Shown piece after piece: positions 1 through 59,254 of a stretch of 64,000 nt of DNA. The stretch comes from Ruditapes philippinarum (lineage: Eukaryota), in the NCBI RefSeq assembly GCF_026571515.1, contig NW_026853784.1:62001-126000 (forward strand). The letters run 5' to 3'. The translations under genes and the position numbers were made by a program. Below the pieces are notes generated by a model, which was not told the DNA's origin, did not search any database, and saw nothing but the letters and a program-made list of their open reading frames with translations. Each line of letters begins with the position of its first letter. The first letter of the stretch is position 1.

Positions 1-727
1 CTCTAATACTTCATGGTGCGGTGAAAATATTTACTTTAAAACCATGGTTTTATACTCTGACCTTAATCGTTCTACATTGTCTTTTGTGATAATTTTGATA
101 AAAAGATTTTCTTTTTGGTATTAGGAACAAGAAGAGTAAAATAAATTTGAAGTATGTCATTCTTAAGAACAAAGCCATTGCTTAAAATTGTTTATTTATT
201 GTGACCACTTAAAACTAACATGTAACATGAGTGTATCACTATTTAATAAAGTCTCTTAACAATTTGAAACAATAATTTCTAAAATGTACAAGGTGTCAAG
301 GACTATAATATGGGACCTCAGCTTTCAGTTTCATCTATTTGACTCATTTCTTAAAATTATCTTTTTACAACTTATTCATAATTATATACATGCAGTAAAT
401 ACCCACAAATTTCACACATGCATGAGGACAAGGACAAAACAACATGCTTTCTAAATTATCAAGGATGGGTGACCATGATGAAATAAAGAAAACTTCTATT
501 ATGACAATATACCAAACCAAAATGTGATGGATATACAATGTACATAATACATACATATATAGGTGTATACATATAAAATATAACACACAAGAATTGAAGA
601 TACAGTGTAATGAGGTATGGTTATACTGAGGACAAACTCAATACCAGTGTATGGCAGGCAGGGATACAAAAATATATGCCCTTCATTGAAAAAGATAGAC
701 ATTTTTTAGTTTCCTGAACATGCCTGA

Positions 728-912
728 TTTTATTTCATAAATAAAAACTTACCTGGAATAACAGTATGAATACTCTTTTTCTGATCCGCATAATAAACTT
801 TCTCCCGGAAGTTGATAAACTTTTCGTGAGGCGCATGCGCACTCTCGGCAAGTTATCTACTTCCTCCTCTCCCAGTAAACGTCAGTTCTCTTTTTCTTGC
901 GAAAGTATTCGC
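728..912 (+). repeat. DIRS left inverted terminal repeat
   Basis: About 747-912 is the reverse complement of about 5831-5994. Contains GCGCATGCGC (831-840) and CCGGAAG promoter-like motifs. Confidence 0.93.
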
Positions 913-996
913 TTCGTCCGCGGTTAATTTTTAGTTTTGATTAGTTTCTTTAGTGGAAATTAGTTTCTCTACTTGAGATTTATCCAGTTTTGTCTT

Positions 997-2451
997 ATGG
1001 CGACGTGTCATCATGCAGAAGAGGGTGAAATTACGTCTGAAAACGACAGATTTTCTGACGAGCCTCATGACAAGAATATGGCGTCGCCAACACGTGGAGA
1101 TCTATCGAGTAGAAATGACACCGTTTCTTACGTGTCGGCAGGAGAAAATACTGCTAATAAATTGCTATTGACTAAAGACAAAGGCAAAAAGAAAAGTCGT
1201 TCGAAAAAATACGACGAATTGAGCAACAGAATGTGTAATATGGAAAAAATGTTGCAAACTTTTTTAGATAAACAATCCGGTGAAAAAAATGAACAAACTG
1301 TGACAAATCAGTTAAATGATGATACTAATGGACAAAGAAAAAAGTCAAATTCTAAAGGAAATCGTGACAAATTTTTATTTGACTCCAGTGAAGATGATTC
1401 TGACTCTGACATGTTGTCAATTTTTGCTGGCGGTCAAATTTCTCCTGCTCATGAAAATAATGATAGCGCCATGTTGGACAAAAACAACAATAGGGAGGAA
1501 AATGTGGAAAATCTCTCTGAAAATACAAGAAAATGTTTATTTGAAATGTTCGGTGAAGATGCAGTTGTTAAAAAAGTTGAACAGAAAAAGGGTTTAACCT
1601 TGGACAAATCACAAATTGAGGTTATTGATAGTGGTTATAGATGTAAACAACCAAACTTTTTGTCTGCTTTTGCCGAGGAAAATTTTGACCTTTTTCCAGT
1701 TGATGCAGATGCTGAAAAATTGCTAGAGGTGCCATCACTGGATGATATGGTAGAAGTATGTCTTACTAAAAGATATGGGCCTAGGGCTTCTTTTGCTAAA
1801 GGAAAACAGTTATATACACAACCAGCTAAGATGATAGAAAAAGTTGCATATAAAGGGCAGCAAGCTGCTCGGTTAGGACTCGTTATTCAAATGTATATAC
1901 AACAAAGTCTCGGTAACCTACTTCAAATGCTAAATTCTACTGATTTTGAAAGAGATCAAGCTTCTCAGATGGTCAAAGATATTTTTGCTATGAGTACGAA
2001 GTGTTTAGACCAAATTGGAAGAACTGGTGCTTTCCATCATATTGTTAGAAGATCATGTTGTATGAAGGATACAGGTCTGCATGAACAAACTGATAAATGG
2101 GACTATTACAATTTACCTTTGTCAGGGGATGGTGTTTTTGGCAAAGAACTAGAAACTTTGTTGAAAGACAAGAAAGAAAAACGTAAACAAGTTGATGATC
2201 TAATCCCAGATCTGAACAAGAAACGGAAATTATCAGCATCTGGTAATTTCTCGGAGTATAAAAAGAAACAACCGATAGAGAAATTGACTGAAAAACCAAG
2301 CACTTCTTCGTATGGGTTGAACAATTTTCGTATCCCTAAGATCTCAAGATCTGACAGCCGGGGAAAGTTTCGTGGCAGAGGTTATAGCTACGGGACGAGA
2401 CGACCCCCATCTGGTAGAGGAAAGCCAGTGGCAAAAACAGATGAAAAATGA
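997..2451 (+). CDS. DIRS ORF1, gag-like protein
   Basis: First ORF inside the element (ATG at 997, in frame with ORF 973-2451). Low-complexity N-terminus and basic RG-rich C-terminus. Assigned by position. Confidence 0.8.
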   Translation: MATCHHAEEGEITSENDRFSDEPHDKNMASPTRGDLSSRNDTVSYVSAGENTANKLLLTKDKGKKKSRSKKYDELSNRMCNMEKMLQTFLDKQSGEKNEQTVTNQLNDDTNGQRKKSNSKGNRDKFLFDSSEDDSDSDMLSIFAGGQISPAHENNDSAMLDKNNNREENVENLSENTRKCLFEMFGEDAVVKKVEQKKGLTLDKSQIEVIDSGYRCKQPNFLSAFAEENFDLFPVDADAEKLLEVPSLDDMVEVCLTKRYGPRASFAKGKQLYTQPAKMIEKVAYKGQQAARLGLVIQMYIQQSLGNLLQMLNSTDFERDQASQMVKDIFAMSTKCLDQIGRTGAFHHIVRRSCCMKDTGLHEQTDKWDYYNLPLSGDGVFGKELETLLKDKKEKRKQVDDLIPDLNKKRKLSASGNFSEYKKKQPIEKLTEKPSTSSYGLNNFRIPKISRSDSRGKFRGRGYSYGTRRPPSGRGKPVAKTDEK

Positions 2452-4507
2452 CTTGGTAAGTGTAATAGTAAAATATCCGGAGATACCTGTTGGGGGCAGA
2501 CTGTCTCATTTCCTATCACATTGGCAACAAATCACCACAGACAAATGGGTGTTAGACGTGATAAGTCAGGGTTACAAGTTAGAATTCGAGGAAAAACCTC
2601 AGTTTTTAGGCATAAAATCAACACGTGTCCCTGCAAAAAGTCAAAATATAATCAAACAAGAAATAATATCTCTTTTAGAAAAAAATGCTATAGAAGTTGT
2701 CAATCCAAAACTAGCAAATTCAGGTTTTTACAGCACATTATTTTTAGTTCCAAAAAAGAACGGGGAAATGAGACCAGTGATAAATTTGAAACCCCTCAAC
2801 AAGTATCTCCGCAAACAACATTTCAAGATGGACACTTTGGCAAAAATATTAAACCTTGTAGAAAAAGAAGACTGGGCTTTTTCAATAGATTTGAAAGATG
2901 CTTATTTCCATATAAAAATTTTCAAAAATCATCGCAAGTATCTGCGCTTCCATTTTCAAGGAGTAACTTACCAATTTCGAACACTATGTTTTGGCCCAAC
3001 AAGTGCTCCTCGAGTCTTTGTCAAAATAATTTCAGTGGTAGTCGCACATCTGAGAAAATTCAATATTCGTCTAGCAAGTTATCTAGACGATTGGTTAGCA
3101 GTAAACAAAACAAAAATGTTATTGTTGAAAGATCGTTATCAAATACTCAGCCTTCTCTTTCATTTAGGGTTCATCATAAACAAGGAAAAATCACAACTTG
3201 TTCCAATGCAAACTCTCAATTATCTGGGCAGTTATTGGGATTTAATGAAAGGGCTAGTGTTTCCAAGCATGGAAAGACTGGAAAAATTAAAAACAGCTGT
3301 GTCAAACATTCAAAAGGGTCAATGCACTGCAAGACATTTCTTAGTCCTACTCGGAATGATAGCCTCATGTCTAGAGCTTATTCCAAATGCCAGGCTGTTC
3401 ATGAGACCTATACAACTTCATTTATTAAAAAATTGGAGCCCTATCAGAATGAATCTGTCTACAAAAATTCCTTTAACACCTCAACTGATCCAGGATCTGA
3501 ATTGGTTCTTATTGGATCAGAACATTGGCTTGGGCAGATCATTACTGAAAGACAACTTTCAAATAACACTGACCACAGATGCCAGTGGCTACGGTTGGGG
3601 AGGTCACATGAACAGCTTGACATGTCAAGGTCAGTGGACTTTGTCAGAAAAAATGCTTCATATAAATTGTCAGGAAATGTTAGCAGTAATGTTCAGTCTC
3701 AAACATTTTCTATCAAAACTGAAGGGCAAGAATGTTCTAGTCCGATCAGACAATACAACTGTTTGCCAATACATCAATCGGCAGGGGGGCACGAGATCAG
3801 CCCAATTATGCAATATGACTATGCGCCTTTGGCAACTGGCCCTGGAGAACAATATTTTGCTGAAAGCTGCTCATATTTTGGGAAAGAAGAATGTGTTGGC
3901 GGATACACTGAGCAGGGAGAGAGTATGTCAGACAGAGTGGTCCTTGAACAAGACAGTGGTTCTGAAATTGTTCGAGCTTTGGGGTCATCCAATGATGGAC
4001 CTGTTTGCTACTTTCCAGAACAAAAAGACTCCACTGTTTTGCTCTTGGATACACCATTCTCAAGCATTTGCCCTAGATGCTCTGTCAATTCCATGGGAAA
4101 ATCTCTTTGCTTATGCGTTTCCACCAGCACAACTTGTTCCCAAAGTACTCAGTCACATGCAAAAATATCATTGTACAATAATACTAATAGCAAATCAGTG
4201 GCCAAGACAACATCATTATCCACTGTTACTGAAAATGTTAATTGCAAATCCAATCAATCTGCCATGCAGCCAAATGCTCTTGACTCAATGCAGGGGTCGA
4301 ATATCACACCCTCATCCAGAGTCTCTGCATTTGACTGCATGGCTGTTGTCAACAGACATTGGTCGTCAAAGGGCCTTTCTGGAAACACAAGAAAATTACT
4401 GTCTAAGTCATGGAGATCTGGCACACGTAGGGATTATCAAAGCAAATTCAAACAATTTAATAGCTGGTGTTGTGAAAGACAAATTGATCCGTATATTGCC
4501 ACTTTAG
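2372..4507 (+). CDS. DIRS pol: reverse transcriptase, RNase H and DNA N6-adenine methyltransferase-like domain
   Basis: PVGGRL, FLVPKK..RPVINLK, DLKDAY, FG..SAP, YLDD (RT); TDAS, RSDN, N..AD.LSR (RNase H); DLFA..N.K and YAFPP (methyltransferase-like). Confidence 0.95.
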   Translation: MAEVIATGRDDPHLVEESQWQKQMKNDLVSVIVKYPEIPVGGRLSHFLSHWQQITTDKWVLDVISQGYKLEFEEKPQFLGIKSTRVPAKSQNIIKQEIISLLEKNAIEVVNPKLANSGFYSTLFLVPKKNGEMRPVINLKPLNKYLRKQHFKMDTLAKILNLVEKEDWAFSIDLKDAYFHIKIFKNHRKYLRFHFQGVTYQFRTLCFGPTSAPRVFVKIISVVVAHLRKFNIRLASYLDDWLAVNKTKMLLLKDRYQILSLLFHLGFIINKEKSQLVPMQTLNYLGSYWDLMKGLVFPSMERLEKLKTAVSNIQKGQCTARHFLVLLGMIASCLELIPNARLFMRPIQLHLLKNWSPIRMNLSTKIPLTPQLIQDLNWFLLDQNIGLGRSLLKDNFQITLTTDASGYGWGGHMNSLTCQGQWTLSEKMLHINCQEMLAVMFSLKHFLSKLKGKNVLVRSDNTTVCQYINRQGGTRSAQLCNMTMRLWQLALENNILLKAAHILGKKNVLADTLSRERVCQTEWSLNKTVVLKLFELWGHPMMDLFATFQNKKTPLFCSWIHHSQAFALDALSIPWENLFAYAFPPAQLVPKVLSHMQKYHCTIILIANQWPRQHHYPLLLKMLIANPINLPCSQMLLTQCRGRISHPHPESLHLTAWLLSTDIGRQRAFLETQENYCLSHGDLAHVGIIKANSNNLIAGVVKDKLIRILPL

Positions 4508-5331
4508 CGGAATGTGCAGATTTTTTGACATATTTGTTTGATAAAGGTCTCAAATACAGAACTATTAATGGTTATAGATCGATGTTGTCTTCAATTTTGG
4601 GCCCAGTTGATAATACACCTATCGGACAACATCCTTTTATTATAAGATTGTTAAGAGCTGTTTTCAACGAACGTCCTCCTTTAAAAAAATTAGTACCTGA
4701 ATGGGATCTTCTTTTCATTTTAGATTCATTGAAGAAAGCTCCATTTGAACCGCTGAAGGATGCATCTTTACGTTACCTTACTTGGAAAGTTTGTTTTCTG
4801 TTGGCGATTACCACTTTTCGGCGTTGCAGTGATTTGCAATCGTTACGTTTAGGTGAAAACTATGTTAATGTCCAGAAGAAAGGATTGACTTTTATAAGAA
4901 CTGGCTTATCAAAGCAAGATAGACCGAATCATTCGGATAGAAATATTTTCATTCCAGCATTACCAAAAAACAGGACTTTAGATCCTAAAAGAGTGCTTTT
5001 TCATTATTTAAAAAGAACAGAAAAATTTCGTAATGCAGGATCTGACCAAGAAATTGTTAAGTTGTTCATTGCAACAAAGAAACCCCATAAACCAGTTTCA
5101 GCTCAGACTATATCCAGATGGTTGGTTAGCATTATTAAGTTTTGTTACAAGTCACAAAGTAAAGACGTAGGTAAAATAAAAGGTCATTCTACTCGCAGCA
5201 TTGGGCCTTCCTTTGCATTGTTTAAAGGTGCTTCACTTCAGCAGATAATGGAAAGTGCCGATTGGTCAAGAGAAACTACGTTTACTCGGCACTATTTAAG
5301 GACTATAAATACAGATTATATGAATGTGTAA
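2521..5331 (+). CDS. DIRS tyrosine recombinase ORF with long N-terminal extension overlapping pol
   Basis: C-terminal YR catalytic residues: R (TFRRCSDL), H-x-x-R (GHSTR), W (ADWS), Y (FTRHY). True start codon uncertain. Confidence 0.92.
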   Translation: MATNHHRQMGVRRDKSGLQVRIRGKTSVFRHKINTCPCKKSKYNQTRNNISFRKKCYRSCQSKTSKFRFLQHIIFSSKKERGNETSDKFETPQQVSPQTTFQDGHFGKNIKPCRKRRLGFFNRFERCLFPYKNFQKSSQVSALPFSRSNLPISNTMFWPNKCSSSLCQNNFSGSRTSEKIQYSSSKLSRRLVSSKQNKNVIVERSLSNTQPSLSFRVHHKQGKITTCSNANSQLSGQLLGFNERASVSKHGKTGKIKNSCVKHSKGSMHCKTFLSPTRNDSLMSRAYSKCQAVHETYTTSFIKKLEPYQNESVYKNSFNTSTDPGSELVLIGSEHWLGQIITERQLSNNTDHRCQWLRLGRSHEQLDMSRSVDFVRKNASYKLSGNVSSNVQSQTFSIKTEGQECSSPIRQYNCLPIHQSAGGHEISPIMQYDYAPLATGPGEQYFAESCSYFGKEECVGGYTEQGESMSDRVVLEQDSGSEIVRALGSSNDGPVCYFPEQKDSTVLLLDTPFSSICPRCSVNSMGKSLCLCVSTSTTCSQSTQSHAKISLYNNTNSKSVAKTTSLSTVTENVNCKSNQSAMQPNALDSMQGSNITPSSRVSAFDCMAVVNRHWSSKGLSGNTRKLLSKSWRSGTRRDYQSKFKQFNSWCCERQIDPYIATLAECADFLTYLFDKGLKYRTINGYRSMLSSILGPVDNTPIGQHPFIIRLLRAVFNERPPLKKLVPEWDLLFILDSLKKAPFEPLKDASLRYLTWKVCFLLAITTFRRCSDLQSLRLGENYVNVQKKGLTFIRTGLSKQDRPNHSDRNIFIPALPKNRTLDPKRVLFHYLKRTEKFRNAGSDQEIVKLFIATKKPHKPVSAQTISRWLVSIIKFCYKSQSKDVGKIKGHSTRSIGPSFALFKGASLQQIMESADWSRETTFTRHYLRTINTDYMNV

Positions 5332-5686
5332 TCACTTCATTTGGAACTTTTCTCTTAATTCTTGCGGATCGCAGGATATTTTGTTTATTTTTATGTTAAG
5401 ACATCGAGAAAGATGTCAAGACATTGAGGAAGATGTCCATTAAATGATGATGTTTGTATGTAAATACAGTGGGATAGAACTATTTTGTAAATATACATTT
5501 GTATATATGACTGTTAAGAAGCAATAGGAATTCCTCATTTGTATGTTTGGAAGAAACAGATGATGAAGATCATGCTCATTTCATTCTACTAAGGTGAGTA
5601 GGAATGAATTTCTTAGTTTTTTGAAGTATATGATTATTTATGAAAGATTCCCACCACCAGTCTTACATTGCTGTAAAATCTGGTTT

Positions 5687-5793
5687 TATTCATACTGTTA
5701 TTCCAGGTAAGTTTTTATTTATGAAATAAAAATTATAAATTTGTTTTCAAATTGAAGTTTTATGAATAAATAATACTTACCTGGAATAACAGT
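5687..5793. repeat. DIRS internal complementary region (ICR)
   Basis: First half is the reverse complement of the element's left end and second half is the reverse complement of the right end, joined at GAAAT-AAAAA-TTATAAAT. Confidence 0.93.
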
Positions 5794-5830
5794 TACCCTC
5801 CCAACCTCCCCTCTTTCTTTCAGTCCTGGG

Positions 5831-6040
5831 GCGAATACTTTCGCCAGAAAAGGAACTGACGTTTACTGGGAGAGGAGGAAGTAGATAACTTGCCGAGAGT
5901 GCGCATGCGCCTCACGAAAAGTTTATCAACTTCCGGGAGAAAGTTTATTATGCGGATCAGAAAAAGAGTATTCATACTGTTATTCCAGGTAAGTATTATT
6001 TATTCATAAAACTTCAATTTGAAAACAAATTTATAATTTT
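5831..6040 (-). repeat. DIRS right inverted terminal repeat with right extension
   Basis: Reverse complement of the left ITR, plus a unique extension of about 45 bp that matches the ICR. Confidence 0.93.
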
Positions 6041-8381: not shown

Positions 8382-9802
8382 AACAAGAGGGCCATGATGG
8401 CCCTGAGATCGCTCACCTGTATATAGGCCCCCCCCCCCAACGTTGCAGAGCCAATTTAACCCAAGGGCTTTTATTTGCACAAACTTGGTAGACACCCATA
8501 AGAAGATGTTTCATGCTAAACATTTAAGCTCTAGCTCATTGGGCTTTTTAAAAGAAGATTTTTTTTTAGTTTTTACTATACACATATAGTTAAAAACAAT
8601 GACACCCCTGGGGCCGGGCCAGTTTTGACCCCAGGGCTTTTATTTGAACAAACTTTGTAGACACTTACTAGAAGATGTTTCATGCTTAATATCTAAACTC
8701 TAGCTATTTGGGTTTTTTCAAAGAAGATTTAAAGTTTTTGCTAAACACATATAAAGAAAATCAATGACCCCCGGGGCGGGGCCAATTTTGACCCCTGGGC
8801 TTGTATTTGAACAAACTTGGTAGACACCTATTAGAACATGTTTGATGCTCAATATCTTAGCCATAGCTCTTTGAGTTCTTTAAAAGAAGATTTTTTAAGT
8901 TTTTACTATATGCATATAGGGAAAATCAATGACCCCCCGGGGCGGGGCCAATTTTCACCCCAGGGCTTTTATTTGAACAAACTTGGTAGACACCCATTAG
9001 AACATGTTTCATGCTAAATATCTTAGCTCTAGCTCTTTGGGTTCTTTAAAAGAAGATTTTTTAAGTTTTTACTATATGCATATAGGGAAAATCAATGACC
9101 CCCAGGGGCGGGGCCAATTTTGACCCCAGGGCTTTTATTTGAACAAACTTGGTAGACACACACTAGAAGATGTTTCATGCCAAATATCTAAGCTCTAGCT
9201 CTTTGAGTTCTTTAAAAGAAGATTTTTTAAGTTTTTACTATATGCATATAGGGAAAATCAATGACCCCCGGGGCGGGGCCAATTTTCACCCCAGGGCTTT
9301 TATTTGAACAAACTTGGTAGACACCCATTAGAACATGTTTCATGCTAAATATCTTAGCTCTAGCTCTTTGGGTTCTTTAAAAGAAGATTTTTTAAGTTTT
9401 TACTATATGCATATAGGGAAAATCAATGACCCCCTGGGGCGGGGCCAATTTTGACCCTAGGGCTTTTATTTGAACAAACTTGGTAGACACTCACTAGAAG
9501 ATGTTTCATGCCAAATATCTAAGCTCTAGCTCTTATGGTTTTTTAACAGAAGATATTTAAAGTTTTTTCTTTCGGTTGCCATGGCAACCAGAGTTTTGCA
9601 TGGAATTAAATTCTTTGAACAATTTTTAAAGGTGACCACCAAAGGAACATTCCTGTGAAGTTTGGATGAAATTGGCTTAGTGGTTTATGAGGAGATGTCA
9701 TTTAAAGTAAAAGTTTATGGACGGACGGACGGACGCCGGACGGACGCCGGACGAAAAGCGATCACAAAAGCTCACCCTGTCACTTTGTGACAGGTGAGCT
9801 AA
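8382..9802 (+). mobile_element. Helentron-associated (HINE/pearl-like) non-autonomous element with ~165-bp internal tandem array
   Basis: 5' ACAAGAGGGCCATGATGGCCCT hairpin; about 6.5 units of 165-166 bp; (GGAC)n microsatellite at 9719-9752; 3' hairpin AGCTCACC...GGTGAGCT; A-rich flanks. Confidence 0.85.
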
Positions 9803-12058: not shown

Positions 12059-15000
12059 CCTATCTTCTTTCGCATTCTTTTTGCGATCTTCTTCTTCTTG
12101 TATTTTTCGTCTTCTGTCATTTTCTCGTTTCTTCTTTAACCAGTATTCAAACGCCTCCTGGTTTTCCTTTTCTTTGTTTTCTTCCTCTTGTCGTCTTCGC
12201 CTTTCACTGTCTTGCTTTTGTTTTTCAAGGGCTTTTTTCCTATCTTCCATCAACTGTTTTTCTCTTGGTGACAGAGCATAAGGGGAATTATAATTGTCAC
12301 AGTAAGATGATGATCCATGGTTTGTCGGCCCATGAGCAGACTGCGGTCTCTGTTTAGCAGGAGCAGATCTGACGTTACGACGAGAACTAGAAGTTGCTGT
12401 CGAAGGTCTAGGCTTCCCAGGAGGTGCTGGCTGAAGCTTTGCTTTATTTTTCTCATTCTGTTTCTTTTCATTTTCTTTATTTGTATCCTGGTCTAATATA
12501 TATCCTAAATCTTTGGCCCTTACATCGTCTGCGCTCACTAATTTAAATTGTCCATCAATCTCTATCAACACTTCGTCTTTTTTGCCTGAATTTGATTTTT
12601 TGCTGCTAGAAATGGTTTCTGAATTGTCATCAACTTTATCGTCAGTTTGTTTTTTAGGTGTTGAGGTTTTAGTTGATTTTGGACTATTTTGTTTTTTATC
12701 TTCCCCTTCATCATCACTAAAGTCAGGTGGGGGAGCCACAAGATCAATAAGATCTGATTTAAATCCTACTTTTGATTCATTTTGTTTTTCAACTGGAGTA
12801 GGATCATTTTTGAGTTCTTCATTTAAAACTTTGAGTCGCTCAGTGACATCATACTCTGGTGGATCTTCATCTAAATAGAAAATGGTGAAACTTATAACCT
12901 TATATTAATAGAAAATGGTGAAACTTATAACCTTAATATAGACAAGAGCTGTCGGTAGGACAGCAACGCTCGACTATTCTTAGTGCTTGATAGTAAAAAA
13001 AATGCTTGATACAGTTACCTCCTCCTGTTTACAGGTTGGGGTCATGATGGTGAACAAGTGTGCAAAGTTTCAAAGCCATATGTCAATGGACTTTGAAAAT
13101 ATTTGAAATATTACAAAAACTTTAACGTAAATTCTAAGTCGAAAAAGGGGCATAATTCTGTCAAAATGCTTGATAGAGTTACCTCCTCCTGTTTACAGGT
13201 TGGGGTCATGATGTTGAACAAGTGTGCAAAGTTTCAAAGCCATATGTCAATGGACTTTGAAAATATTTGAACTATTACAAAAACTTTAACGTAAATTCTA
13301 AGTCGAAAAAGGGGCATAATTCTGTCAAAATGCTTGATAGAGTTACCTCCTCCTGTTTACAGGTTGGGGTCATGATGTTGAACAAGTGTGCAAAGTTTCA
13401 AAGCCATATGTCAATGGACTTTGAAAATATTTGAACTATTACAAAAACTTTAACATAAATTCTAAGTCGAAAAAGGGGCATAATTCTGTCAAAATGCTTG
13501 ATAGAGTTACCTCCTCTTGTTTACAGGTTGGGGTCATGATGGTGAACAAGTGTGCAAAGTTTCAAAGCCATATGTCAATGGACTTTGAAAATATTTGAAC
13601 TATTACAAAAACTTTAACATAAATTCTAAGTCGAAAAAGGGGCATAATTCTGTCAAAATGCTTGATAGAGTTACCTCCTCTTGTTTACAGGTTGGGGTCA
13701 TGATGGTGAACAAGTGTGCAAAGTTTCAAAGCCATATGTCAATGGACTTTGAAAATATTTGAACTATTACAAAAAACTTTAACATAAATTCTAAGTCGAA
13801 AAAGGGGCATAATTCTGTCAAAATGCTTGATAGAGTTACCTCCTCTTGTCTACAGGTTGGGTCATGAATGGTGAACAAGTGTGCAAAGTTTCAAAGCCAT
13901 ATGTCAATGGACTTTGAAAATATTTGAACTATTACAAAAACTTTAACATAAGTGGTTACGCCGACGCCGACGCTCGGGTGACTGCAATAGCTCTACTTAT
14001 TCTTATCGAATAGTCGAGCTAAAAATTGTGAAACTTATAACCTTATAAAAGTAAACAATGAAAATTTATAACCTTATTATAGAAAATGGTAAAACTTATA
14101 ACCTTATAATAGAAAATGGTGGAACTTATAACCTTATAAAAGAAAATGGTGAAACTTATAACCTTATCATAGAAAATGGTGAAACTTATAACCTTATAAT
14201 AGAAAATATCAAGCATAACCATTTACCTTTGTATATCATAAAGTATTATTTAAAACATAAGATATATTTCATATAATATAACTTTAAATTTGTGAAATAT
14301 TTGTTACATATTTAGATTATTCAAATCATTAACATATTTTAAGGTGAGAATTTGCAGTTACCAGGCAAACAGCCTAATTCAGTTTTGAGATTATCCAGTT
14401 CCTCCAGTGCTCTTTTCTGATCCTCAGTCAAATTATAGTCATCTACTTCTGAATCTTCATTATCACTCTGCTCTCGTGCAGTCACTTTCTCTGTTTTGTC
14501 ATCCTTAGACACATCTTTGTCCTTTTCCATCGTGTTTTGATTCTACAAAGGTAAAATATCAACATTTTTATAACATGAACAGTTTCGGGTTTTATCATAC
14601 ATTTGAATAGCAAGTTTTAAGTAATAATGACATAATAAAGTACAATGTATTGTGTTCAAAATAATCTAATAAAAGGTCATAATAACATATCTTTGCATAC
14701 ATAAAGTTACATAATAATATACATGTATAAACTTAAAATTATGTTTTATTGAAATCAATTGAAAGGGAAAAAATGTAATTATCTTTTAAATATTATCATT
14801 TAGACAAATCTATTTTTCATTAAACAAATTCATTATAACATGATCATAATACATTTTGATTGGTTGCTAGCTTTGTGATATGAATGTTTCTGTTTAAGTT
14901 GGTAGATATTTCATTTAGATATAGATATTTCATTTAGGTCCAGATATTTGACTTTCTGAGACTACTACAAAATGATTATTATTTGTGGGGAACTAATTTT

Positions 15001-18022: not shown

Positions 18023-19197
18023 AACTAGAAATGTGTCATCATGCCACGGATGCAGCCAAAATTTCAGATGTTATAATATTTAGTTCCAAATTTGTTTGCA
18101 CAAATTATTTTTTTTATTTTAAGTTCAAAGCCCTTAAAACTTTTCAATGTTAACACAAAACATTTCCATACATTACAATGTTCAAGGCACTGAAATTATT
18201 CAGTCTTAACCTTTTGAAAATAGCATATTTCATATTTGTAGCCAAAATAATGGCTACATACATTTCCACAAAAGTATGAGTGCTGAAACTGAAAGTTCAA
18301 AATTTTTCCAACATCAAAGAAAGATAACTTTGTCCAAAATCAGTGAACCACGACCAAATTCAAACTTAAACTGCTTATTCCTAAGATGTATCTATATTAT
18401 TTTCAAAGTGAAAGGGATATAACTCTGCCAAAAAATCATCAAACCATGACCAAATTCCAACTTGACCTGGGTATTCCTTTGACATATCCATATGTCAAAT
18501 TTGAGTTGAGGGGCTTTACTCTGCCAAAAATCATTGAACCATGACCAAATTAGAACTTGGCCTGGGCATTCCAAAACCATATCCATATGTCAAATTTGAG
18601 TTGAATGTGTTGTACCGGTGGGGAGATAATAAACAGAAACTGAAAATTTCATATTATTTTCAAAGTGAAAGGTGCATAACTCTGCCAAAAATCATTGAAC
18701 CATGACCAAATTTGAACTTGACCTGCGCATTCCTTTGACATATCCATATGTGAAGTTTGAGTTGAATGTGTTGTACCGTTGGGGAGATAATGAACGGAAA
18801 CTGAAAATTTCATATTATTTTCAAAGTGAAAGGGGCATAACTGTGCCAAAAATCATCGAACCATGACCTAATTCGAACTTGACCTGTATTTTATCATGAC
18901 ATATCCATATGTCAAATTTGAATTGAATGTGTTGTACAGTTGGGGAGATAATGAATGGAAACTGAAAATTTCATATTATTTTCAAAGTAAAAGGGGCATA
19001 ACTCTGCCAAAAATCATCGAACTATGACCAAATTCGAACTTGACCTGTATTTTCTCATGACATATCCATATGTCAAATTTGATTTGAATGTGTGCAACAG
19101 TTACTAAGATAATGAACGAAAACTGATGATGACGGAATGACGGAAGGACGGAATAGGGTAACACTATATGCCCCCGCCATCTAATGGCGGGGGCATA
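18023..19197 (+). mobile_element. HINE/pearl-like element with ~161-bp internal array
   Basis: Starts AACTAGAAAT; units at 18651, 18812, 18973; (GACGGAAT)n; terminal hairpin ATGCCCCCGCCAT...ATGGCGGGGGCAT. Confidence 0.8.
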
Positions 19198-22466: not shown

Positions 22467-25400
22467 ATGAAATGGCTAATTGTAAAGTTGGTTTTTATAG
22501 CATATATTTTGACTCTCGTATCCATTCTTATGTTCTTTCCCGAAATTGGAGTGACGGAGGATAAAAGTAATGAAAAGTGTCAAAGAGAAATAGACCGGAT
22601 AATTCAAAAGTATGAACATACTTTAAATCAAACCGTTCAAAATCTTAAAAAGGAAGATCACACAGAAGAAACTTCTGATGAAGATATCGGACCAGGTAAG
22701 ATTTTCTTATAATTAATATAAATTACAGTTAAAGTACTTACTGCCTATAAAAAAGTTAAATTGGATTTTCTTACCTATAGTGAGATGCAGTATACAAGTC
22801 TGAAATAACTTATGTTTCACAACAGTTAAAAGCACTGTTATTAATTAATAAAGTAACAATTTTTCCTTCTATGTCTTTAAAACTGTTTTGGTTAGTGTGT
22901 TATACAAATACTGAGTTTTAATGAGTTTTCATGGAAATATTTTTTTTTTTGCCACGGACATAAAATGCCAATACCACAATTTAACTATAATCGACTTTGT
23001 GATGTACCCTGAAATACATGTCAGTTTTAATTCCATAGGATTATTTTTAGTTCGAACAGTTTTAGAACATCTCTTTGATAAGTATCTTTCAAAAAGTGAC
23101 CTTTGATTTGTTGAATAGTAGCTATCTACACCTGCAAAAACAACATGGAGTCATTGTGATATACAAATCAATTTATATAAATAGTCTGCTTTTTGTATGT
23201 CTACAAACACTCGAAATAGTAACAGCTAGGAGAGACATATACTGGTGCACAATTTGTCGTCTTATAGTAGAAGACAGAACACGTGTTGTTACACCAGCTG
23301 CTTTAATATGCAAATTAAGCTTATGAAATTAGCCATTCATATAACGTATTATGTATAAAAGAACGTACACCTTTGTCCCGTTAGTATTATTACAAGTTAT
23401 CTAATACTAAACGAATTTTAACAAAACGAGATAAGAGTTTAGAATAAATGGAACTAGAAAAAACTATAAATGCGTTTAACCAACTATTACAGGGTCGCTC
23501 GGCCGAGATGTTGATCTAAGTAGGGTATCACTCAGCGACAGTGAACAAGGAAAGAGGCAAAAACTTCTAGCTCAACATGACTATGATGCTTTTGTTAGTG
23601 ATTTGGTATCTATATACCGCGTTCTTCCAGATACCAGACCTGATGTGCAAGTATTCCGAATAGTATTAAAACAAAATGAACAAATGCATCAGTCAATTGT
23701 AACCCATGCCGTTTTTCCGGGGTGTAGAAAAAATTAGATGTTTTAACCTCTTCTCCCGTACTTGGTAAAGAAAAAAACGTGATTTTCTCTCTTGTCCAAC
23801 TTTGATAAGTCTCCACTATTCAGGAATTGGGGCCGGTATAACAATTGGCAGTAGTAAATAGCGACTTAAAATAAGTACGCCACATTTCTGCTAAAGCCAC
23901 ATTTTTGCAAACGTTATAATATTGATCAGAGCAGCTGCAAGAGTGCATTTTATATACACGCACTCGTGTATATACCTTATCTGTATTAATTAACTACGTA
24001 TGCGATAATAGAAGTTTTAATGTGAATGAAATTTGTAGGTGATATTATAGATTTACAACAGATATAACAAGTTGATTAAAACCAGTAGTGAATTCAAAGG
24101 TCGAAATATTGAATATATTGTGTCAGCTTGTGCCGAGAGACATTTCTAATTGCGAAGTGCAGGAGTCTACATTGAGAATGAACGAAAATATTTTAGATTA
24201 ATTAGATATACCTAATATATTGACCATACCTCATATAGAATATACGCAAAAGTAATATATGATTATCATCGCATAGATTATTTTTACCGTTAACAGTATG
24301 AACATAATGAACAAAATAAACACGTACCTGGCGTTCCAACATTACAAATTTAAATCACCGATCTCAATAACCGGAGCTTATCAGAACTGTATTTACCGCT
24401 TGTATGGAGGAGCGATCTGACAAAAGACAAAAAGAAGCTGAGCAAACCATACAAACTAATACATTAATTCAAACTGTTTGACAATTTTCTCTAGGTGACA
24501 CATGCAATAGTGTTGTGCTGTAAGTTATATAAGACAATAAGAGTTGATTTTTCAATATGTGGTCTTCGTTTGTTATATTAAGTGATGCAATATCATTTGC
24601 GTAGCTAAAGTACAACAAAAGTAATAACGGTTTTTTTTTGTTGTTTCATTTTATTTATTCCATTAACATGTTTTATAAATGTAGAACCAATGTCACTATT
24701 GGTATTGAAATGACATTTTTGTAATACAAAAACAAAACATTTTGGCGTCAGTTCACTTTAGTAATTGCATGTTTATTTATAATTTATCATCGGTTGATAT
24801 TTTTTCAATAGTTTATCGAACAGATATTTCCTTTTACTAACGGCTGCCTTCCATGCTTCTTCTGATTCAAAGTCATCTTCGTCTCGAAGCCTTCTCATAG
24901 TTTGTTTGACAGCTCTGTGAAAGCGATCCTTTTTTACCGATTCAAACCACATAATCCTGAACAGATACTTTTTCATCACTGCCCTTCTGATCACCGGAAG
25001 TAGCTTGTGGTAAGCTTTTTTGCTGGCATCCTTTTCGCTTATGTCATTATCATCTTCCATTATCTCGGAAGCTAACGAGTTCACTTCTTCCTGATGTTCA
25101 TCATAACCGTATTTGACGATATCCCACCAAGGGTCAATTGTTTCTTCAGCTAGTTCTTCATCCGATTTACTTTCCAAATCCGATTCCTCTGTATCGTTGC
25201 TGTCACTGATTTCTGATTCCTCATTCTCTTTCGAACGGGTGTCCTCTTCGTGAACGGATTTCTTATGTCTAAACAAATTGTACTTCTTTGCAAAGTTTTT
25301 GTCACAATCGCTGCAGGCAAACATAATTTTAAGTTGAATGCACTCACTTATAAAACCTCTGTGTAGTTCGAGTTGCGAACGATAAATGACTGAAACGTTA

Positions 25401-28400
25401 ATTCAACGCTAGAGGTAAATATACTATTGTCGAGCAGGATCAGACTTGAGCTCATAATGAGACAGTTAAAACGATATTTGAGTCTATTAAAGTCCCATAG
25501 AGGACTGTCCTCTAGCCCGCTCATTCCTGCTCGTAGATTGCTCTTCCTTTCCCGAACTGTCCTCTTGCCTGCTCATATCTGCTCGTATATTGCTCATTTA
25601 TTAAAAAAGGCCATCTAGCCTGCTCACACCTGCTCGTAGATTGCTCCTTCATTCCCAGACTGTCATTTAGCCGGCTGCTCGACAATAGTATATTTACCTC
25701 TAGCGTTGAATTAACGTTTCAGTCATTTATCGTTCGTAACTCGAACTACACAGAGGTTTTATAAGTGAGTGCATTCAACTTAAAATTATGTTTGCCTGCA
25801 GCGATTGTGACAAAAACTTTGCAAAGAAGTACAATTTGCTCAGACATAAGAAATCCGTTCACGAAGAGGACACCCGTTCGAAAGAGAATGAGGAATCAGA
25901 AATCAGTGACAGCAACGATACAGAGGAATCGGATTTGGAAAGTAAATCGGATGAAGAACTAGCTGAAGAAACAATTGACCCTTGGTGGGATATCGTCAAA
26001 TACGGTTATGATGAACATCAGGAAGAAGTGAACTCGTTAGCTTCCGAGATAATGGAAGATGATAATGACATAAGCGAAAAGGATGCCAGCAAAAAAGCTT
26101 ACCACAAGCTACTTCCGGTGATCAGAAGGGCAGTGATGAAAAAGTATCTGTTCAGGATTATGTGGTTTGAATCGGTAAAAAAGGATCGCTTTCACAGAGC
26201 TGTCAAACAAACTATGAGAAGGCTTCGAGACGAAGATGACTTTGAATCAGAAGAAGCATGGAAGGCAGCCGTTAGTAAAAGGAAATATCTGTTCGATAAA
26301 CTATTGAAAAAATATCAACCGATGATAAATTATAAATAAACATGCAATTACTAAAGTGAACTGACGCCAAAATGTTTTGTTTTTGTATTACAAAAATGTC
26401 ATTTCAATACCAATAGTGACATTGGTTCTACATTTATAAAACATGTTAATGGAATAAATAAAATGAAACAAAAAAAAACCGTTATTAGTTTTGTTGTACT
26501 TTAGCTACGAAAATGATATTGCATCACTTAATATAACAAACGAAGACCACATATTGAAAAATCAACTCTTATTGTCTTATATAACTTACAGCACAACACT
26601 ATTGCATGTGTCACCTAGAGAAAATTGTCAAACAGTTTGAATTAATGTATTAGTTTGTATGGTTTGCTCAGCTTCTTTTTGTCTTTTGTCAGATCGCTCC
26701 TCCATACAAGCGGTAAATACAGTTCTGATAAGCTCCGGTTATTGAGATCGGTGATTTAAATTTGTAATGTTGGAACGCCAGGTGTTTATTTTGTTCATTA
26801 TGTTCATACTGTTAACGGTAAAAATAATCTATGCGATGATAATCATATATTACTTTTGCGTATATTCTATATGAGGTATGGTCAATATATTAGGTATATC
26901 TAATTAATCTAAAATATTTTCGTTCATTCTCAATGTAGACTCCTGCACTTCGCAATTAGAAATGTCTCTCGGCACAAGCCGACACAATATATTCAATATT
27001 TCGACCTTTGAATTCACTACTGGTTTTAATCAACTTGTTATATCTGTTGTAAATCTATAATATCACCTACAAATTTCATTCACATTTAAACTTCTATTAT
27101 CGCATACGTAGTTAATTAATACAGATAAGGTATATACACGAGTGCGTGTATATAAAATGCACTCTTGCAGCTGCTCTGATCAATATTATAACGTTTGCAA
27201 AAATGTGGCTTTAGCAGAAATGTGGCGTACTTATTTTAAGTCGCTATTTACTACTATTGACTTGTGCATAACTGATTTATTCTTTAATTATATAGTTTTA
27301 CATGTAGCTTTAAGTCACTGAAATTGATATTGCTAACGGACCTTGTATATTTAGTCATCTGGAGTTAGTATTTGAGAACCGAAATCACGATAATACCATA
27401 TCTAACAAATAGATTTACAACTAAATAAAAACGTTACCTTTTCGAGGTATTATTTAACAACACTCGGTCAAGCTTCGCACTTATGCACTCTCTTGTATTT
27501 GTTTGGTGCCCTGCTGGGTTTCTCGTGGGTGGTCCTGTGTTCCTGGATTATGTTCGGGGATGCGTACATTGATGCCACACTTCTTAATTGATATTTGTAA
27601 TCATAATGCATTTTGAAATATTTTTGACATAACATGGATGCTTTTAAAATTATAACAATCATACAAATAATTATTTTTCTTTTCCTACAAAAAAAAAATT
27701 TTGTGTGCAAGTATAAGATAGTGTTCATGAGGAAGCATTACCAACATAAATTGGCCAGTAAAGTTACAATATTGAAATTCTATTGGTCAAAAAGTAATTT
27801 GAATTTTATCAAAAAATTTCAAGTAGGTCAGAAAAAATGTGGGTTTTTTTCTCATCAAAGTATGTATTTCATTATTTATCACAATCTCTCTATTTACTAG
27901 ATGTAAACGTATGAAGTACGAGGACTTGCCTGCAGTGAGTATTATCATACCATTCCGAGATGAACGACTGAGTGTGTTACTGAGAACTATACATAGTATT
28001 CTACAGAATACACCGAGCAAACTACTAGCTGAAATTATCATTATTGACGATGGTTCTGAAACAGGTGTGTAAAAAATATGTCAGTATGTTACAAACTCAC
28101 AATTTTTTAAAAAAGAAGGGGGAAAAAAGGAGAAAATATTGTTATTTTATCTAGCAGTAGTAGTAGCAGCAGCAGCAGTAGCAGCAGTAGTAAAAGAAGA
28201 AGTAGAAGCAGCTAGACAAACAAAATCCACGGCTTTTCATATGACTATAAAAGTATTATTTATCACACAAAAGTCAGTGGTAGATACAGCAATGGAACGT
28301 TTTCTATTTTAAATTTCAAATAAAAAATTAAAAGACTTAATGTTGTAAAGTGTGATCCCTCGGAAGCAATAAATACAGCATTCGGCCTTCGTGATTAAAT

Positions 28401-36030: not shown

Positions 36031-37054
36031 TTATGCTCCCCGAAAAATTTCGGGGGAGCATATAGTCGTCCGTCAGTCCGTCCGTCCGTCAGTCCGTCCG
36101 TCCGTACGTCCCGAATTCGTGTCCGGCCCATAACTTTGTTATTTGAAGTCGGATTTTAAAAATATTTCACAGAAATTATCACCATATTAAGACGACATGT
36201 TGCGCGCAACATTTGGGTCGCTACCTTGAAGGTCAAGGTCACAGCATGACCTTGCAGCAAAATCGTGTTGGGCCCATAACTTTGTTATTTGAAGTCGGAT
36301 TTTAAAAATATTTCACAGAAATTATCACCATATTGAGACGACGTGTCGCGCGCAACATTTTGGTCACTTCCTTGAAAGTCAAGGTCACAGCATGACCTTG
36401 CAACAAAATTGTGTCCGGCCCATAACTTCGTTATTTGAAGTCCGATTTTAAAAATATTTCACAGAAATGATCATCATATTGAGATGACGTGTCATGCACA
36501 ACATTTGGGTCGCTACCTTGAAGGTAAAGGTCACAGCATGACCTTGCAGCAAATTCGTGTCCGGCCCATAACTTTGTTATTTGAAGTCAGATTTTAAAAC
36601 TATTTCACAGAAATGATCACCATATTGAGATGACGTGTCGTGCGCAACATTTGGGTTGCTACCTTCAAGGTCACAGCATGACCTTGCAGCAAAATCGTGT
36701 CCGGCACATAACTTCATTATTTGAAGTCGGATTTTACAACTATTTCACAGAAATGATCACCATAATGAGACAATGTGTCAAGCGCAACATTTGGGTTGCC
36801 ACCTTGAAGGTCAAGGTCACAGCAGGACCTTGCAGCAAAATCGTGTCTGGCCCATAACTTCGTTATTTGAAGTTGGATTTTACAACTATTTCACAAAAAT
36901 GATCACCATATTGAGACAATGTGTCGTGCACAATATTTGGGTTATTTTTACAATTTGAACTTTGTCTGTGACATAACTCTGACACTACAAGAGGTATACC
37001 TTCCTGTGTCCAAAACCTATTCGGGGAGCATCACCCGGTTCAACCGGCTCTTGT
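36031..37054 (-). mobile_element. HINE/pearl-like element with 146-bp array (about 6 units)
   Basis: Hairpin ATGCTCCCCGAA...TTCGGGGGAGCAT, (GTCC)n, units at 36129, 36275, 36421..., end CCGGTTCAACCGGCTCTTGTT. Confidence 0.87.
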
Positions 37055-55949: not shown

Positions 55950-57842
55950 TTATGTTCCCCGAACAATTTCGGGGGAGCATACAGTCGCCGGGTTGTCCGT
56001 CCGTCCGTCCATCCGTCCGTCAGTCCTTCTGTACGTACGTACGTACGTCCCGAATTTGTGTTCGGCCCATAACTTCGTTATTTGAAGTCGGTTTTTACAA
56101 CTATTTCACAGAAATGATCACCATATTGAGACGACGTGTCGCGCGCAACATTTGGGTCGCTACCTTCAAGGTCAAGGTCAAAGCATGACCTTGCAGCAAA
56201 ATCGTGTCCGGTCCAAAACTTCGTTATTTGAAGTCGGTTTTTACAACATTTTCACAGAAATGATCATCATATTGAGACGACGTGTCACATGCAGCATTTG
56301 GGATGCTACCTTGAAGGTGAAGGTCGCAGTATGACCTTGCAGCAAAATCGTGTTCGGCCCATAACTTCGTTATATGAAGTCTGATTTTAAAACTTTTTCA
56401 CAGAAATTATCACCATATTGAGACAACGTGTCACGCGCAACATTTGGGTCGCTACCTTTAGGTCAATGTCACAGCATGACCTTGCAGCAAAATCGTATCC
56501 GGCCCATAACTTCGTTATTTGAAGTCTGATTTTACAACTATTTCAAAGAATCACCATATTGAGACTATGTGTCGCGCGCAACATTTGGGTCGCTACCTTG
56601 AAGGTCAAGGTCACAGCATGATCTTGCAGCAAAATCCTGTCCGGCCCAAAACTTCGTTATTAAGATTCGGATTTTACAAGTATTAATCAGAAATGATCAC
56701 CATATTGAGACGACGTGTCGCGCACAACATTTGGGTCGCTACCTTGAAGGTCAAGGTCACAGCATGACCTTGCAGCAGAATCGTGTCCGGCCCATGACTT
56801 AATTATTTGAAGTCAGATTTTACATCTATTTCACAGAAATGATCACCATTATTGAGACGACGTGTCGCGCGCAACATTTGGGTCGCTTCCTTGAAGGTCA
56901 AGGTCACAGCATGACCTTGCAGCAAAATTGAGTTCGGCCCATAACTTCGTTATTTGAAGTCGGATTTTACAATTATTTCACAGAAATGATCACCATATTG
57001 AGACGACGTGTCGCGCGCAAATTTAGGTCGCTACCTTGAAGGTCAAGGTCACAGCATGACCTTGCAGCAAAATCGTGTTGGGCCCATAACTTCGTTATTT
57101 GAAGTTTAGATTTTACAACTATTTCACAGAAACGATCACCATATTGAGACGATGTGTCATGCGCAACATTTGGTCGCTACCTTTAGGTCAATGTCACAGC
57201 ATGACCTTGCAGCAAAATCGTATCCGGCCCATAACTTCGTTATTTGAAGTCTGATTTTACAACTATTTCACAGAAATGATCACCATATTGAGACAACGTG
57301 TCGCGCGCAACATTTGGGTCGCTTCCTTGAAGGTCAATGTCACAGCATGACCTTGCAGCAAAATCGTGTCCGACCCATTACTTCGTTACTTGAAGTCGGA
57401 TTTTACAACTATTTCACAGAATGATCATCATATTGAGGCGATGTGTCGAGCACAACATTTAGGTCGCTACCTTGAAGGTCAAGGTCACAGCATGGCCTTG
57501 CAGCAAAATTGAGTCCGGCCCATTACTTCGTTATTTGAAGTCGGATTTTACAACTATTTCACAGAAATTATCACCATATTGAGACGACGTGTCGCACGTA
57601 ACATTTTGGTCGCTATCTTGAAGGTCAAGGTCACAGCATGACCTTGCAGCACAATAACATTGTTATTTGAAGTCGGAATTTACAACTATTTCACAGAAAT
57701 GATCACCATATTGATACGACGTATGGCGCACAACATTTACTTTGAACTTTGTCTGTGACATAACTCTGACACTACAAGAGGTATACCTTCATTTGTCCAA
57801 AACCTTTTTTGGGAGCACCACCCGGTTCAACCGGCTCTTGTT
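55950..57842 (-). mobile_element. HINE/pearl-like element with 146-bp array (about 11-12 units), same family as 36031-37054
   Basis: Same terminal hairpin, (GTCC)n, unit sequence and end sequence as the 36-kb copy. Confidence 0.87.
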
Positions 57843-58362: not shown

Positions 58363-59254
58363 CACAGGCGGCAGTATCAGTGTTTGGACACCCCACCCCT
58401 ATCTGCCCCTGGACCCCTACTACAATCCTGAAAAAAAATTCAACACTCTTAGGCTTACTATAAGGTACCAAATACAAAACCACCGATGAAATTATATATA
58501 AAAAAAAATTTCCACTATCAAAATTATAGTTATAGAAAGGTGTAAAGCCTACTATATGTCCATTTGCCAAACAATGTGGAACACGGGAAATCGTCGTTTC
58601 GGCGACTGAGGCGCATTCCGGCGGGATTTCGCTGCATCATTCATTTACATCAATAAAAAGAACTTGAATTCCACAGCTTACTTAATTCAAGTCCAATGAA
58701 TATCAATATTCTATCGATTTTTTCTATTTCACGGTAATTTTTGACTTGTCGTTGCCATTTTGGATTCTGATACCTGTGTGTTATACGCGATCTGATTGGA
58801 CGTCCAATTTGGCTCGTCCAATCAGATCGCGTATTTCAACCCAGGTATCAGACTGCAAAATGGCTACGACAATTAAAAAAATACCGTGAAACAGAAAAAA
58901 TCGGAATGATAGTGATATTAGTTGGACTTGAATTACATAAACTGAGGAATTCTAGTTCTTTTATTAATGTTAATGAATGATGCAGCGAAATCCCGCTGGA
59001 ATGCGCCTCAGTCGCCGAAACGACGATTTCCCGTGTTCCACATTGTTTGGCAAATGGACATATAGTAGGCTTTACACCTTTCTATAACTATAATTTTGAT
59101 AGTGGAAATTCTTTTTTTATATATAATTTCATCGGTGGTTTTGTATTTGGTACCTTATAGTAAGCCTTAGAGTGTTGATTTTTTTTTCAGGATTGTAGTA
59201 GGGGTCCAGGGGCAATAGGGGTGGGGTGTTCAAACACTGATACTGCCGCCTGTG
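58363..59254. mobile_element. 892-bp fold-back MITE with 8-bp TSD (P- or hAT-type ends)
   Basis: CACAGGCGG...CCGCCTGTG; arms of ~440 bp meet at a 12-bp loop (58803-58814); TSD GCCAGATT/GCCAGACT. Confidence 0.88.

Follow-up and report, generated by a model that had tools for sequence, protein, structure and literature searches.

Polintons or Mavericks (Polintoviricetes, adintoviruses) encode their own enzymes and a capsid, and their non-autonomous relatives are catalogued in Repbase as N-elements. Phage satellites such as P4 and PICI/SaPI are small integrated elements without capsid genes that use a factor of their own to exploit a helper. Capsid-less Polintons are known from Trichomonas (PMC4405056, in the part available), and Polinton virions have not been seen in animals according to the abstract of PMC8097293 and the accessible part of 10.1101/2023.08.22.554363. 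Here we describe a 3,406-bp element at positions 23850–27255 of a 64,000-nucleotide stretch of the Ruditapes philippinarum genome (contig NW_026853784.1; the whole stretch is called the window below), in which a first-pass annotation had noticed two copies of a gene for a small acidic protein with a single C2H2 finger. We read these two open reading frames (ORFs) as one gene, the only gene of a small Polinton satellite, duplicated by fold-back; its protein probably binds central GAG-core repeats and may couple the DNA to helper packaging. We favour this reading as a whole tentatively and with a little under half of our confidence.

A palindromic element with Polinton-type ends

The element is a palindrome in which a left arm of 1,588 bp (23850–25437, minus strand) and a right arm of 1,581 bp (25675–27255, plus strand) enclose a spacer of 237 bp (25438–25674). 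This spacer contains a 63-nt direct repeat, represents the native upstream region of the right-hand gene and forms the predicted binding array. The arms are young; they differ at nine places (seven substitutions and two indels) over about 1,580 bp. The element begins with AGTAGT, ends with ACTACT and is flanked by ATTGGC on the left (23844–23849, plus strand) and ATTGAC on the right (27256–27261, plus strand), copies of a target-site duplication that agree at five of six positions. In another sample, eight reads (run X22) ending at 27255 into the left flank give the left duplication as ATTGAC, a perfect match. Section 7 of PMC8097293 describes the Maverick end motif (AGT)2//(ACT)2 together with a 6-bp duplication. 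Taking an end motif of this kind or (AG)3//(CT)3 plus a 6-bp duplication as the mark of a Polinton, both are present here.

Polymerase B, integrase, ATPase, protease and capsid genes gave no match in the element when probed with sequences from this genome's Polintons (14 + 138 probes), the one weak match of the core probes being finger to finger. What remains is one gene in two copies within 3,406 bp, compared with the 13–25 kb of autonomous Polintons. Since no polymerase, integrase or capsid gene is present, copying and integration must come from elsewhere. A terminal block of 413 bp (23850–24262, plus strand; mirrored at 26843–27255) is common to the copy on contig C1657; those on C15351, C6900 and C1376 have other termini.

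The element is placed in an intron of a host glycosyltransferase gene, the exons of which continue in order on both sides. The inferred exon on the 5′ side (23493–23646, plus strand; splice sites read from sequence) belongs to what we take, from its motifs, to be a GALNT-like gene, and the inferred exon on the 3′ side (27901–28064, plus strand) matches Pfam Glycos_transf_2 (E 1e-7). The intron around the element (23647–27900) seemingly has a GC donor (GCAAGT), as judged from sequence and frame only.

The two gene copies

The left copy of the gene (24773–25324, minus strand) and the right copy (25788–26339, plus strand) both encode 183 amino acids in open frames, as the first-pass annotation had it, and the only amino acid in which they differ is indeed residue 18, Phe (TTT) on the left and Leu (CTC) on the right. 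The AATAAA reported at the stop is likewise there, overlapping the stop codon (26335–26340, plus strand, with a mirror copy in the left arm). Introns, as an ordinary host gene would have them, occur in no copy. Other claims fared less well. A TATAAG, a putative promoter word, does lie 28 nt before the ATG (25760–25765, plus strand; mirrored at 25347–25352, minus strand), but its role as a promoter is doubtful: it would leave almost no 5′ leader, the window has 0.52 such words per kb on each strand, and TATA-like words in relatives stand about 45–60 nt upstream.

Residue 18 was rightly placed in the recognition helix, but its two-nucleotide difference is not a single event. Codon 18 is CTT in five of the seven other copies examined, and the raw reads (T at 25841 in 9/9) and contig runs (Leu base at 25273 in 4/4) point the same way; therefore, one arm acquired a silent change and the other a replacement. 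Phe18 was found only in the left arm of the window element. The residue is helix position +5, which is not a usual base contact, and across 36 fingers this position is occupied by L (8), E (6), Q (5), M (4), R (4) or K (3), with N(+3) conserved in 30, R(+6) in 35 and R(−1) in 25 of the 36. A specificity switch at residue 18 was rejected because +5 is a variable helix position. The observation that the gene is kept intact in both arms carries no evidential weight either: the arm differences are so few that, when scattered at random, they leave both ORFs open in 55% of cases, and intactness is thus no sign of selection. Among full-length family copies, five of ten have an open frame.

A single finger, an acidic linker and a helical domain

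The protein starts with a C2H2 finger (residues 4–25; 25797–25862, plus strand), the helix of which carries K at −1, Y at +2, N at +3 and R at +6. The motif C-x2-C-x12-H-x4-H is present, the Pfam zf-C2H2 (PF00096) score of 24.9 bits falls just below the cut-off of 25.2, and the model, a hairpin plus helix with a predicted local distance difference test (pLDDT) score of about 91, fits solved fingers locally. An acidic linker follows (residues 27–63; 25866–25976, plus strand; 17 D/E and 3 K/R), which is predicted to be disordered, and then an all-helical domain with a basic C-terminal half (about residues 64–178; 25977–26321, plus strand). The first-pass annotation could put no name to this C-terminal region, and neither can Pfam. 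The structure prediction and Foldseek comparison that it proposed gave a confident model of the helical domain (mean pLDDT 82) and no fold match: Foldseek of the protein model against PDB and BFVD returned nothing at E 0.001, the best VIA-align hit (Z 6.9) consists of generic helices, and ESM Atlas gave no usable match. These empty searches argue neither for a new fold nor for the absence of a known one.

The helical domain is found in 99 of 149 listed representatives at 50% identity, 41 of which also have the finger motif. This is a broad family without a Pfam name; coral and clam names, including Porites, occur among the listed matches, and for one family the sole close relative with a name comes from Ruditapes philippinarum. 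Two scans of viral contigs found no relative, and a metagenome scan matched 11 loci, one of them (L107) by chance, on contigs too short to show element ends. The proposed comparison of dN/dS (the ratio of nonsynonymous to synonymous substitution rates) across copies bore fruit: the gene is under purifying selection between diverged lineages, with values of 0.19 (C813/C12829) and of 0.16 and 0.18 (metagenome loci), and of 0.36 in a closer pair. Near-identical pairs and family B (see below) have too few changes for such an estimate, and young copies show no significant selection.

Dispersed families with exchangeable termini

With the protein as query, 150 of 257 candidates in the genome were scored, which gave at least 72 matches spread over 54 contigs. 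Some 40 loci were examined, all copies being integrated with target duplications; 13 have clearly located ends and measure 3.4–6.8 kb, with duplications that match at 6/6 positions in ten and at 5/6 in three. Polinton ends and a duplication without enzymes, in dispersed copies, are what characterizes a non-autonomous derivative, and all of these were found. At least three gene families can be told apart: family A, to which the window element belongs, the family of C813 and C12829, and family B; identity to A is 30–38%. The gene is single in C15351, C7905 and C6900, where the spacer is the upstream region of the gene, and duplicated in the window, C1657, C12317, C1376, C813 and C4614, with differing turning points. 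Palindromes resembling the window's exist at six other loci. We infer that fold-back by template switching during strand-displacement copying caused the duplicated copies.

Fold-back duplication is not limited to the zinc-finger gene, since a 12.4-kb palindromic Polinton derivative (G000:C1197:48086–60466; loci L061, L062) has 5.4-kb arms that each carry a long open polymerase frame, between perfect copies of the duplication AATAAC. Another palindrome, of 7.3 kb (L138:1338–8626, contig G000:C216), combines a further AGTAGT terminus with an interrupted gene copy, and each of its arms has integrase remnants. Members of family B (L040, L140, L141, L143, L144, L146 and others) are 4.1–5.5 kb long and have TGATGA..TCATCA ends, 6-bp duplications and about 70 GAGCA repeats before the gene; these ends are not among the motifs listed in the available part of PMC8097293.

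Full Polintons are plentiful in this genome, with at least 94 polymerase matches on 49 contigs and at least 100 capsid matches on 58 contigs. The termini of the sister copies are 88–98% identical to those of capsid-coding Polintons without the gene: C15351 matches C15739 over 770 bp (97.5%), C6900 matches the same contig over 290 bp (96%), C12317 matches C13841 over 103 bp (98%), and the ends of the C813 family match the complete C9746 over 561 bp (88%). Autonomous partners with the same termini are therefore present for sister copies, and the 98%-identical gene core of family A is set between different Polinton termini, single or duplicated. The stand-alone gene itself was not found in the capsid-coding Polinton stretches (0/12). 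The search for polymerase and capsid genes in its neighbourhood, another check suggested at first pass, showed no overlap between the 54 contigs that carry it and the 49 polymerase or 58 capsid contigs. Contigs with the ATPase tail described below are shared with polymerase in 15 cases and with capsid in one (two separate elements); the P value of the contig overlap is 0.009, although kin are not independent. In this genome, then, a gene absent from the helpers (0/12) goes together with purifying selection (dN/dS 0.16–0.19), as membership of the satellites would have it, and the combination of borrowed termini with a gene lacking from the matching Polintons looks like satellite behaviour. The earlier description of the protein as Polinton-encoded needs to be narrowed accordingly: the Polinton link stands (ends, duplication, sister termini and ATPase-tail homology), but the gene is, in this genome, confined to capsid-less derivatives.

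In helpers, a small gene stands between the penton and major capsid genes, a position called PW in vertebrates in the available part of PMC8097293. A homologue of this small gene (61% for L097) directly precedes the zinc-finger gene in the C813 family and at the metagenome loci L097, L100, L101 and L102. On contigs from other samples, two small genes come before the zinc-finger gene, with integrase, penton and capsid absent between and after. Three ATPase-neighbour proteins of this genome's helpers reached 0.1–0.8% in hhalign against the zinc-finger protein. As side observations, the public homologues P0151, P0157 and P0140 end like the 'SP..Q...AKSEL' motif of the penton–capsid small gene and are possibly fused neighbours, and the capsid-coding Polintons at L064, L065 (G000:C4304) and L124 have accessory genes for PC4, BIR and TBP-like proteins.

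A finger and its putative GAG-core sites

The helix pattern of the family, R(−1), N(+3) and R(+6), is that of engineered GAG binders: Table 1 of PMC1920264 has RSDNLTR and RKDNRKR as helices obtained by selection on GAG with a G after it. In the window, where the finger has Lys(−1), no 4-mer ranks above GAGC in the spacer, which has 11 GAGC/GCTC words compared with about 3.3–3.4 expected. Family B, again with Lys(−1), has an upstream array with 75–76 GAGC in 1 kb compared with about 9 expected. In the 150 nt upstream of eight Arg(−1) genes, GAGG ranks first of 136 4-mer classes (32 versus 7.9), and no such enrichment exists downstream of Arg(−1) genes (six loci) or before eight helper genes. 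Helpers have at most 3–5 GAGC or GAGG per 240 nt, compared with 12 in the window. In a tree of 38 rows, none omitted, family A falls inside the Arg/GAGG members (support 98/92), and a sister relationship with B is rejected (approximately unbiased test, p 0.013), so the Lys(−1) families do not form a single clade. From these sequence comparisons, it seems quite probable that the finger reads the GAG-core repeats upstream of its own gene, and natural Lys(−1) and Arg(−1) proteins should then prefer GAGC and GAGG, respectively. GAG-repeat binding probably also sets the gene's own expression. In Arg(−1) relatives, the sites are no more than 150 nt away from the ATG; in the window, they are 115–350 nt upstream of it, between the two divergent copies. 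Binding to the element's termini, as first proposed for this protein, is not supported, with no GAG cluster found at the ends; the candidate sites are the central repeats upstream of the gene.

A related tail on the packaging ATPase of capsid-less Polintons

We made a profile from 251 sequences, all of them stand-alone proteins. In 8/8 capsid-less elements, it matches the packaging ATPase at its C-terminal tail, with 18–40 bits over most of the profile's length; the same profile gives at most 8 bits in 12 capsid-coding stretches, three of them read end to end, where the ATPase is bare and lacks a helical tail. Comparison of helical domain and ATPase tail with hhalign yielded 93.6% and 95.5%. 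The helical domain is thus, judging by these profiles, homologous to the C-terminal tail of the ATPase of capsid-less Polintons. Two of the latter are complete, G000:C4116:16004–25120 (9.1 kb; L072, L073) and G000:C15324:4536–13969 (9.4 kb; L077, L078), with perfect 6-bp duplications; they hold polymerase, extended ATPase and integrase only, and capsid, penton and protease gave no match. Their ATPases also start with a finger, and that of C7025 starts with the family helix RRDNMLR. The repeats before the ATPase in capsid-less elements do not co-vary with their fingers, and a single-sequence model of the ATPase fusion (pLDDT 39) was not used.

Because capsid-less 9-kb Polintons have the same domain, and some the same finger, on their ATPase, and capsid-coding ones do not, the helical domain may serve to dock on the packaging ATPase or the capsid of the helper, a role that we regard as possible and a shade short of probable. 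In the mechanism we propose, helper Polintons would copy and integrate the enzyme-less small element, and strand-displacement copying with template switching would give rise to fold-back duplicates and exchanged termini. The finger would sit on the central repeats, many weak GAG-core sites making up for its being single, and the helical domain would tie the element's DNA to helper packaging. This tie is modelled on IVa2 and L4-22K at the adenovirus A repeats, as outlined in the available part of PMC4346872.

Reads and transcripts

No holder of the gene among those listed has an RNA record. Runs X21 and X22 carry the label RNA-Seq, yet over half of their reads break off, 10 of 12 shown loose ends fall at five GATC sites, and coverage extends over both strands and the non-coding arms alike; with breaks at GATC and even coverage, these runs behave like proximity-ligation DNA and are uninformative on expression. 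X23 and X24 contain no reads on the element and likewise none on the host exon. Contigs X1, X2 and X4, guessed to be RNA, cover the gene, and two of them also the non-coding arm.

Weighing the explanations

Several points weigh against the satellite reading. No helper with the window's own terminus was found among 14 matches, nor one with the TGATGA ends of family B (40 of 91 scored). The absence of the gene from helpers was judged in this genome only and mostly on partial stretches, and as the protein is not usable as a profile against the whole genome, remoter copies near capsid genes may be missed. A genome of 3.4 kb is far smaller than the helpers' 16 kb. The eight capsid-less elements were chosen by a search with one such tail, and ends plus duplication were confirmed in two. 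A conserved Met precedes the tail, which is a separate frame in C8201 and in one C15819 copy, so the apparent fusion may be two adjacent genes; among public proteins, the fused form did not turn up (0/99 domain-bearing representatives with Walker A, and none in 7,998 longer candidates, the latter a weak search). The co-variation of finger and repeats involves two Lys(−1) origins only, no GAGG cluster was found at C14782, C2247, C15770 and L104, and L104 and L105 taken singly show no enrichment. The proximity of the sites to the start of the gene in Arg(−1) relatives fits self-regulation. Finally, small elements contain pieces of other Polinton genes, from polymerase in the arms of family A and from integrase and penton genes near the zinc-finger gene at C15770, C2247 and C216, as expected of deletion products; this fits an origin through deletion with recombination.

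These points feed different alternatives. A close rival, which we nevertheless consider somewhat unlikely, is that the protein is a transcription regulator and nothing else, with a finger for DNA, an acidic activation region and a helical cofactor domain, acting through the GAG repeats on its own gene, its neighbours and perhaps helper genes in trans. The regulator named in the first-pass annotation is in this sense still a live candidate: its finger-plus-acidic layout is classic, and the sites are where a regulator of the gene would have them, near the ATG in Arg(−1) relatives and between the divergent copies in the window. Both readings may even overlap, as adenovirus L4-22K and IVa2 do both jobs (PMC4346872, in the part available). 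Self-only regulation would, however, be useless to a one-gene element, yet dN/dS is 0.16–0.19; moreover, helpers lack matching GAG clusters, the roughly 70 sites in 1 kb of family B go beyond a promoter's need, and the ATPase tail is left unexplained. The gene remnants, in turn, would suit a passive leftover: an accessory gene of a full Polinton lineage missing from the assembly, with small elements as deletion and fold-back products and selection having occurred in the parents. That young copies show no significant selection, that five of ten are interrupted and that the genome searches scored only part of the candidates would agree with this. We find it improbable all the same, as it calls for a separate unseen parent for each of three divergent families, the gene is lacking from the Polintons with matching termini, and contigs from other samples keep the same compact gene order.

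Two further possibilities rank far lower. EBNA1, LANA and E2 tether viral genomes to host chromosomes, and a repeat array, a DNA-binding domain, a long acidic stretch and a basic C-terminal half could make up a tether of this type that links free copies to host chromosomes. We consider this very improbable: all copies examined are integrated with target duplications, there is no sequence or fold link to known tethers, and the ATPase tail would again go unexplained. That the palindrome is a fold-back artefact of the assembly, or the gene a host gene, is hardly credible and already largely refuted. Chimeric reads can yield perfect long palindromes, but here the flanks differ and carry a target duplication with host exons in order on both sides, junction reads exist in another sample, the arms differ at nine places, similar palindromes recur at six other loci and no copy has introns.

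Returning to the satellite reading, a more general version of it would be that marine invertebrates carry long-lived capsid-less satellites of 3–9 kb that hijack helper Polinton virions through a finger co-evolving with its repeats and a docking helical domain, perhaps with a shrunken capsid, and that swap their termini to fit the active helper. We offer this as a speculation that is on balance unlikely. If true, phage satellites would have a counterpart in animals, and the existence of Polinton virions would gain indirect evidence. Without capsids to exploit, it is hard to see why capsid-less elements should keep and extend the ATPase and tiny ones retain the extension alone, an extended packaging ATPase being more than a pure transposon would need.

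Other features of the window

At 725–6040, the window contains a retroelement, presumably DIRS-like, with inverted ends, internal complementary repeats and three long open frames at 997–2451, 2441–4507 (reverse transcriptase and RNase H) and 2545–5331 (tyrosine-recombinase-like end). Satellite arrays with units of 166, 164, 161 and 146 bp occupy 8450–9567, 12999–13951, 18509–19126, 36117–36944 and 56058–57738, and a small fold-back element with nested inverted arms lies at 58363–59254.

Comparison with known systems

The likeness to P4 and PICI/SaPI lies in a small integrated element without capsid genes that has a factor of its own; there is no homology, the host is an animal and the hijacking is hypothetical here. 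With IVa2 and L4-22K on the A-repeat packaging domain of adenovirus, the window protein would share a small sequence-specific protein, an array of short repeats, a tie to the ATPase and a double role as regulator (PMC4346872, in the part available). It differs in being a true C2H2 finger protein, in its central rather than left-end repeats and in being satellite-borne, and no Pfam, Foldseek or VIA-align match to L4-22K or IVa2 was obtained. Transpovirons, as far as PMC3671162 and PMC5499653 cover them in the parts available, are also small and linear with inverted ends, lack capsid genes, descend from Polinton-like viruses and encode a zinc-binding protein; in contrast, they have a helicase and depend on giant viruses, whereas the window element is enzyme-less and resides in an animal genome. 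The Polinton terminal protein D1 is an alpha/beta domain in the polymerase precursor, according to the available part of PMC11161782, and the window protein is stand-alone and all-helical after its finger. The protein may belong to the unnamed Adintoc classes of adintoviruses.

Autonomous Polintons are closest in their ends, with the same motif and 6-bp duplication and with sister termini that match full Polintons of the same genome. They span 13–25 kb with enzymes and capsid, compared with 3.4 kb that are nearly all palindrome, and the window gene was not found in the capsid-coding ones. No gene-bearing Polinton satellite is described in the literature searched, which did not extend to Repbase, papers behind subscription or the greater part of the adintovirus supplement. 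Small elements of this kind escape any screen that asks for both polymerase and integrase, as in the available part of PMC8097293. With non-autonomous and capsid-less Polintons, finally, the window element shares the loss of virion genes and dependence on, or descent from, full elements, and what sets it apart is that it has a conserved gene on which purifying selection acts, repeats that fit the finger and termini that can be exchanged. By its sequence, it would be a Polinton satellite with a gene of its own.

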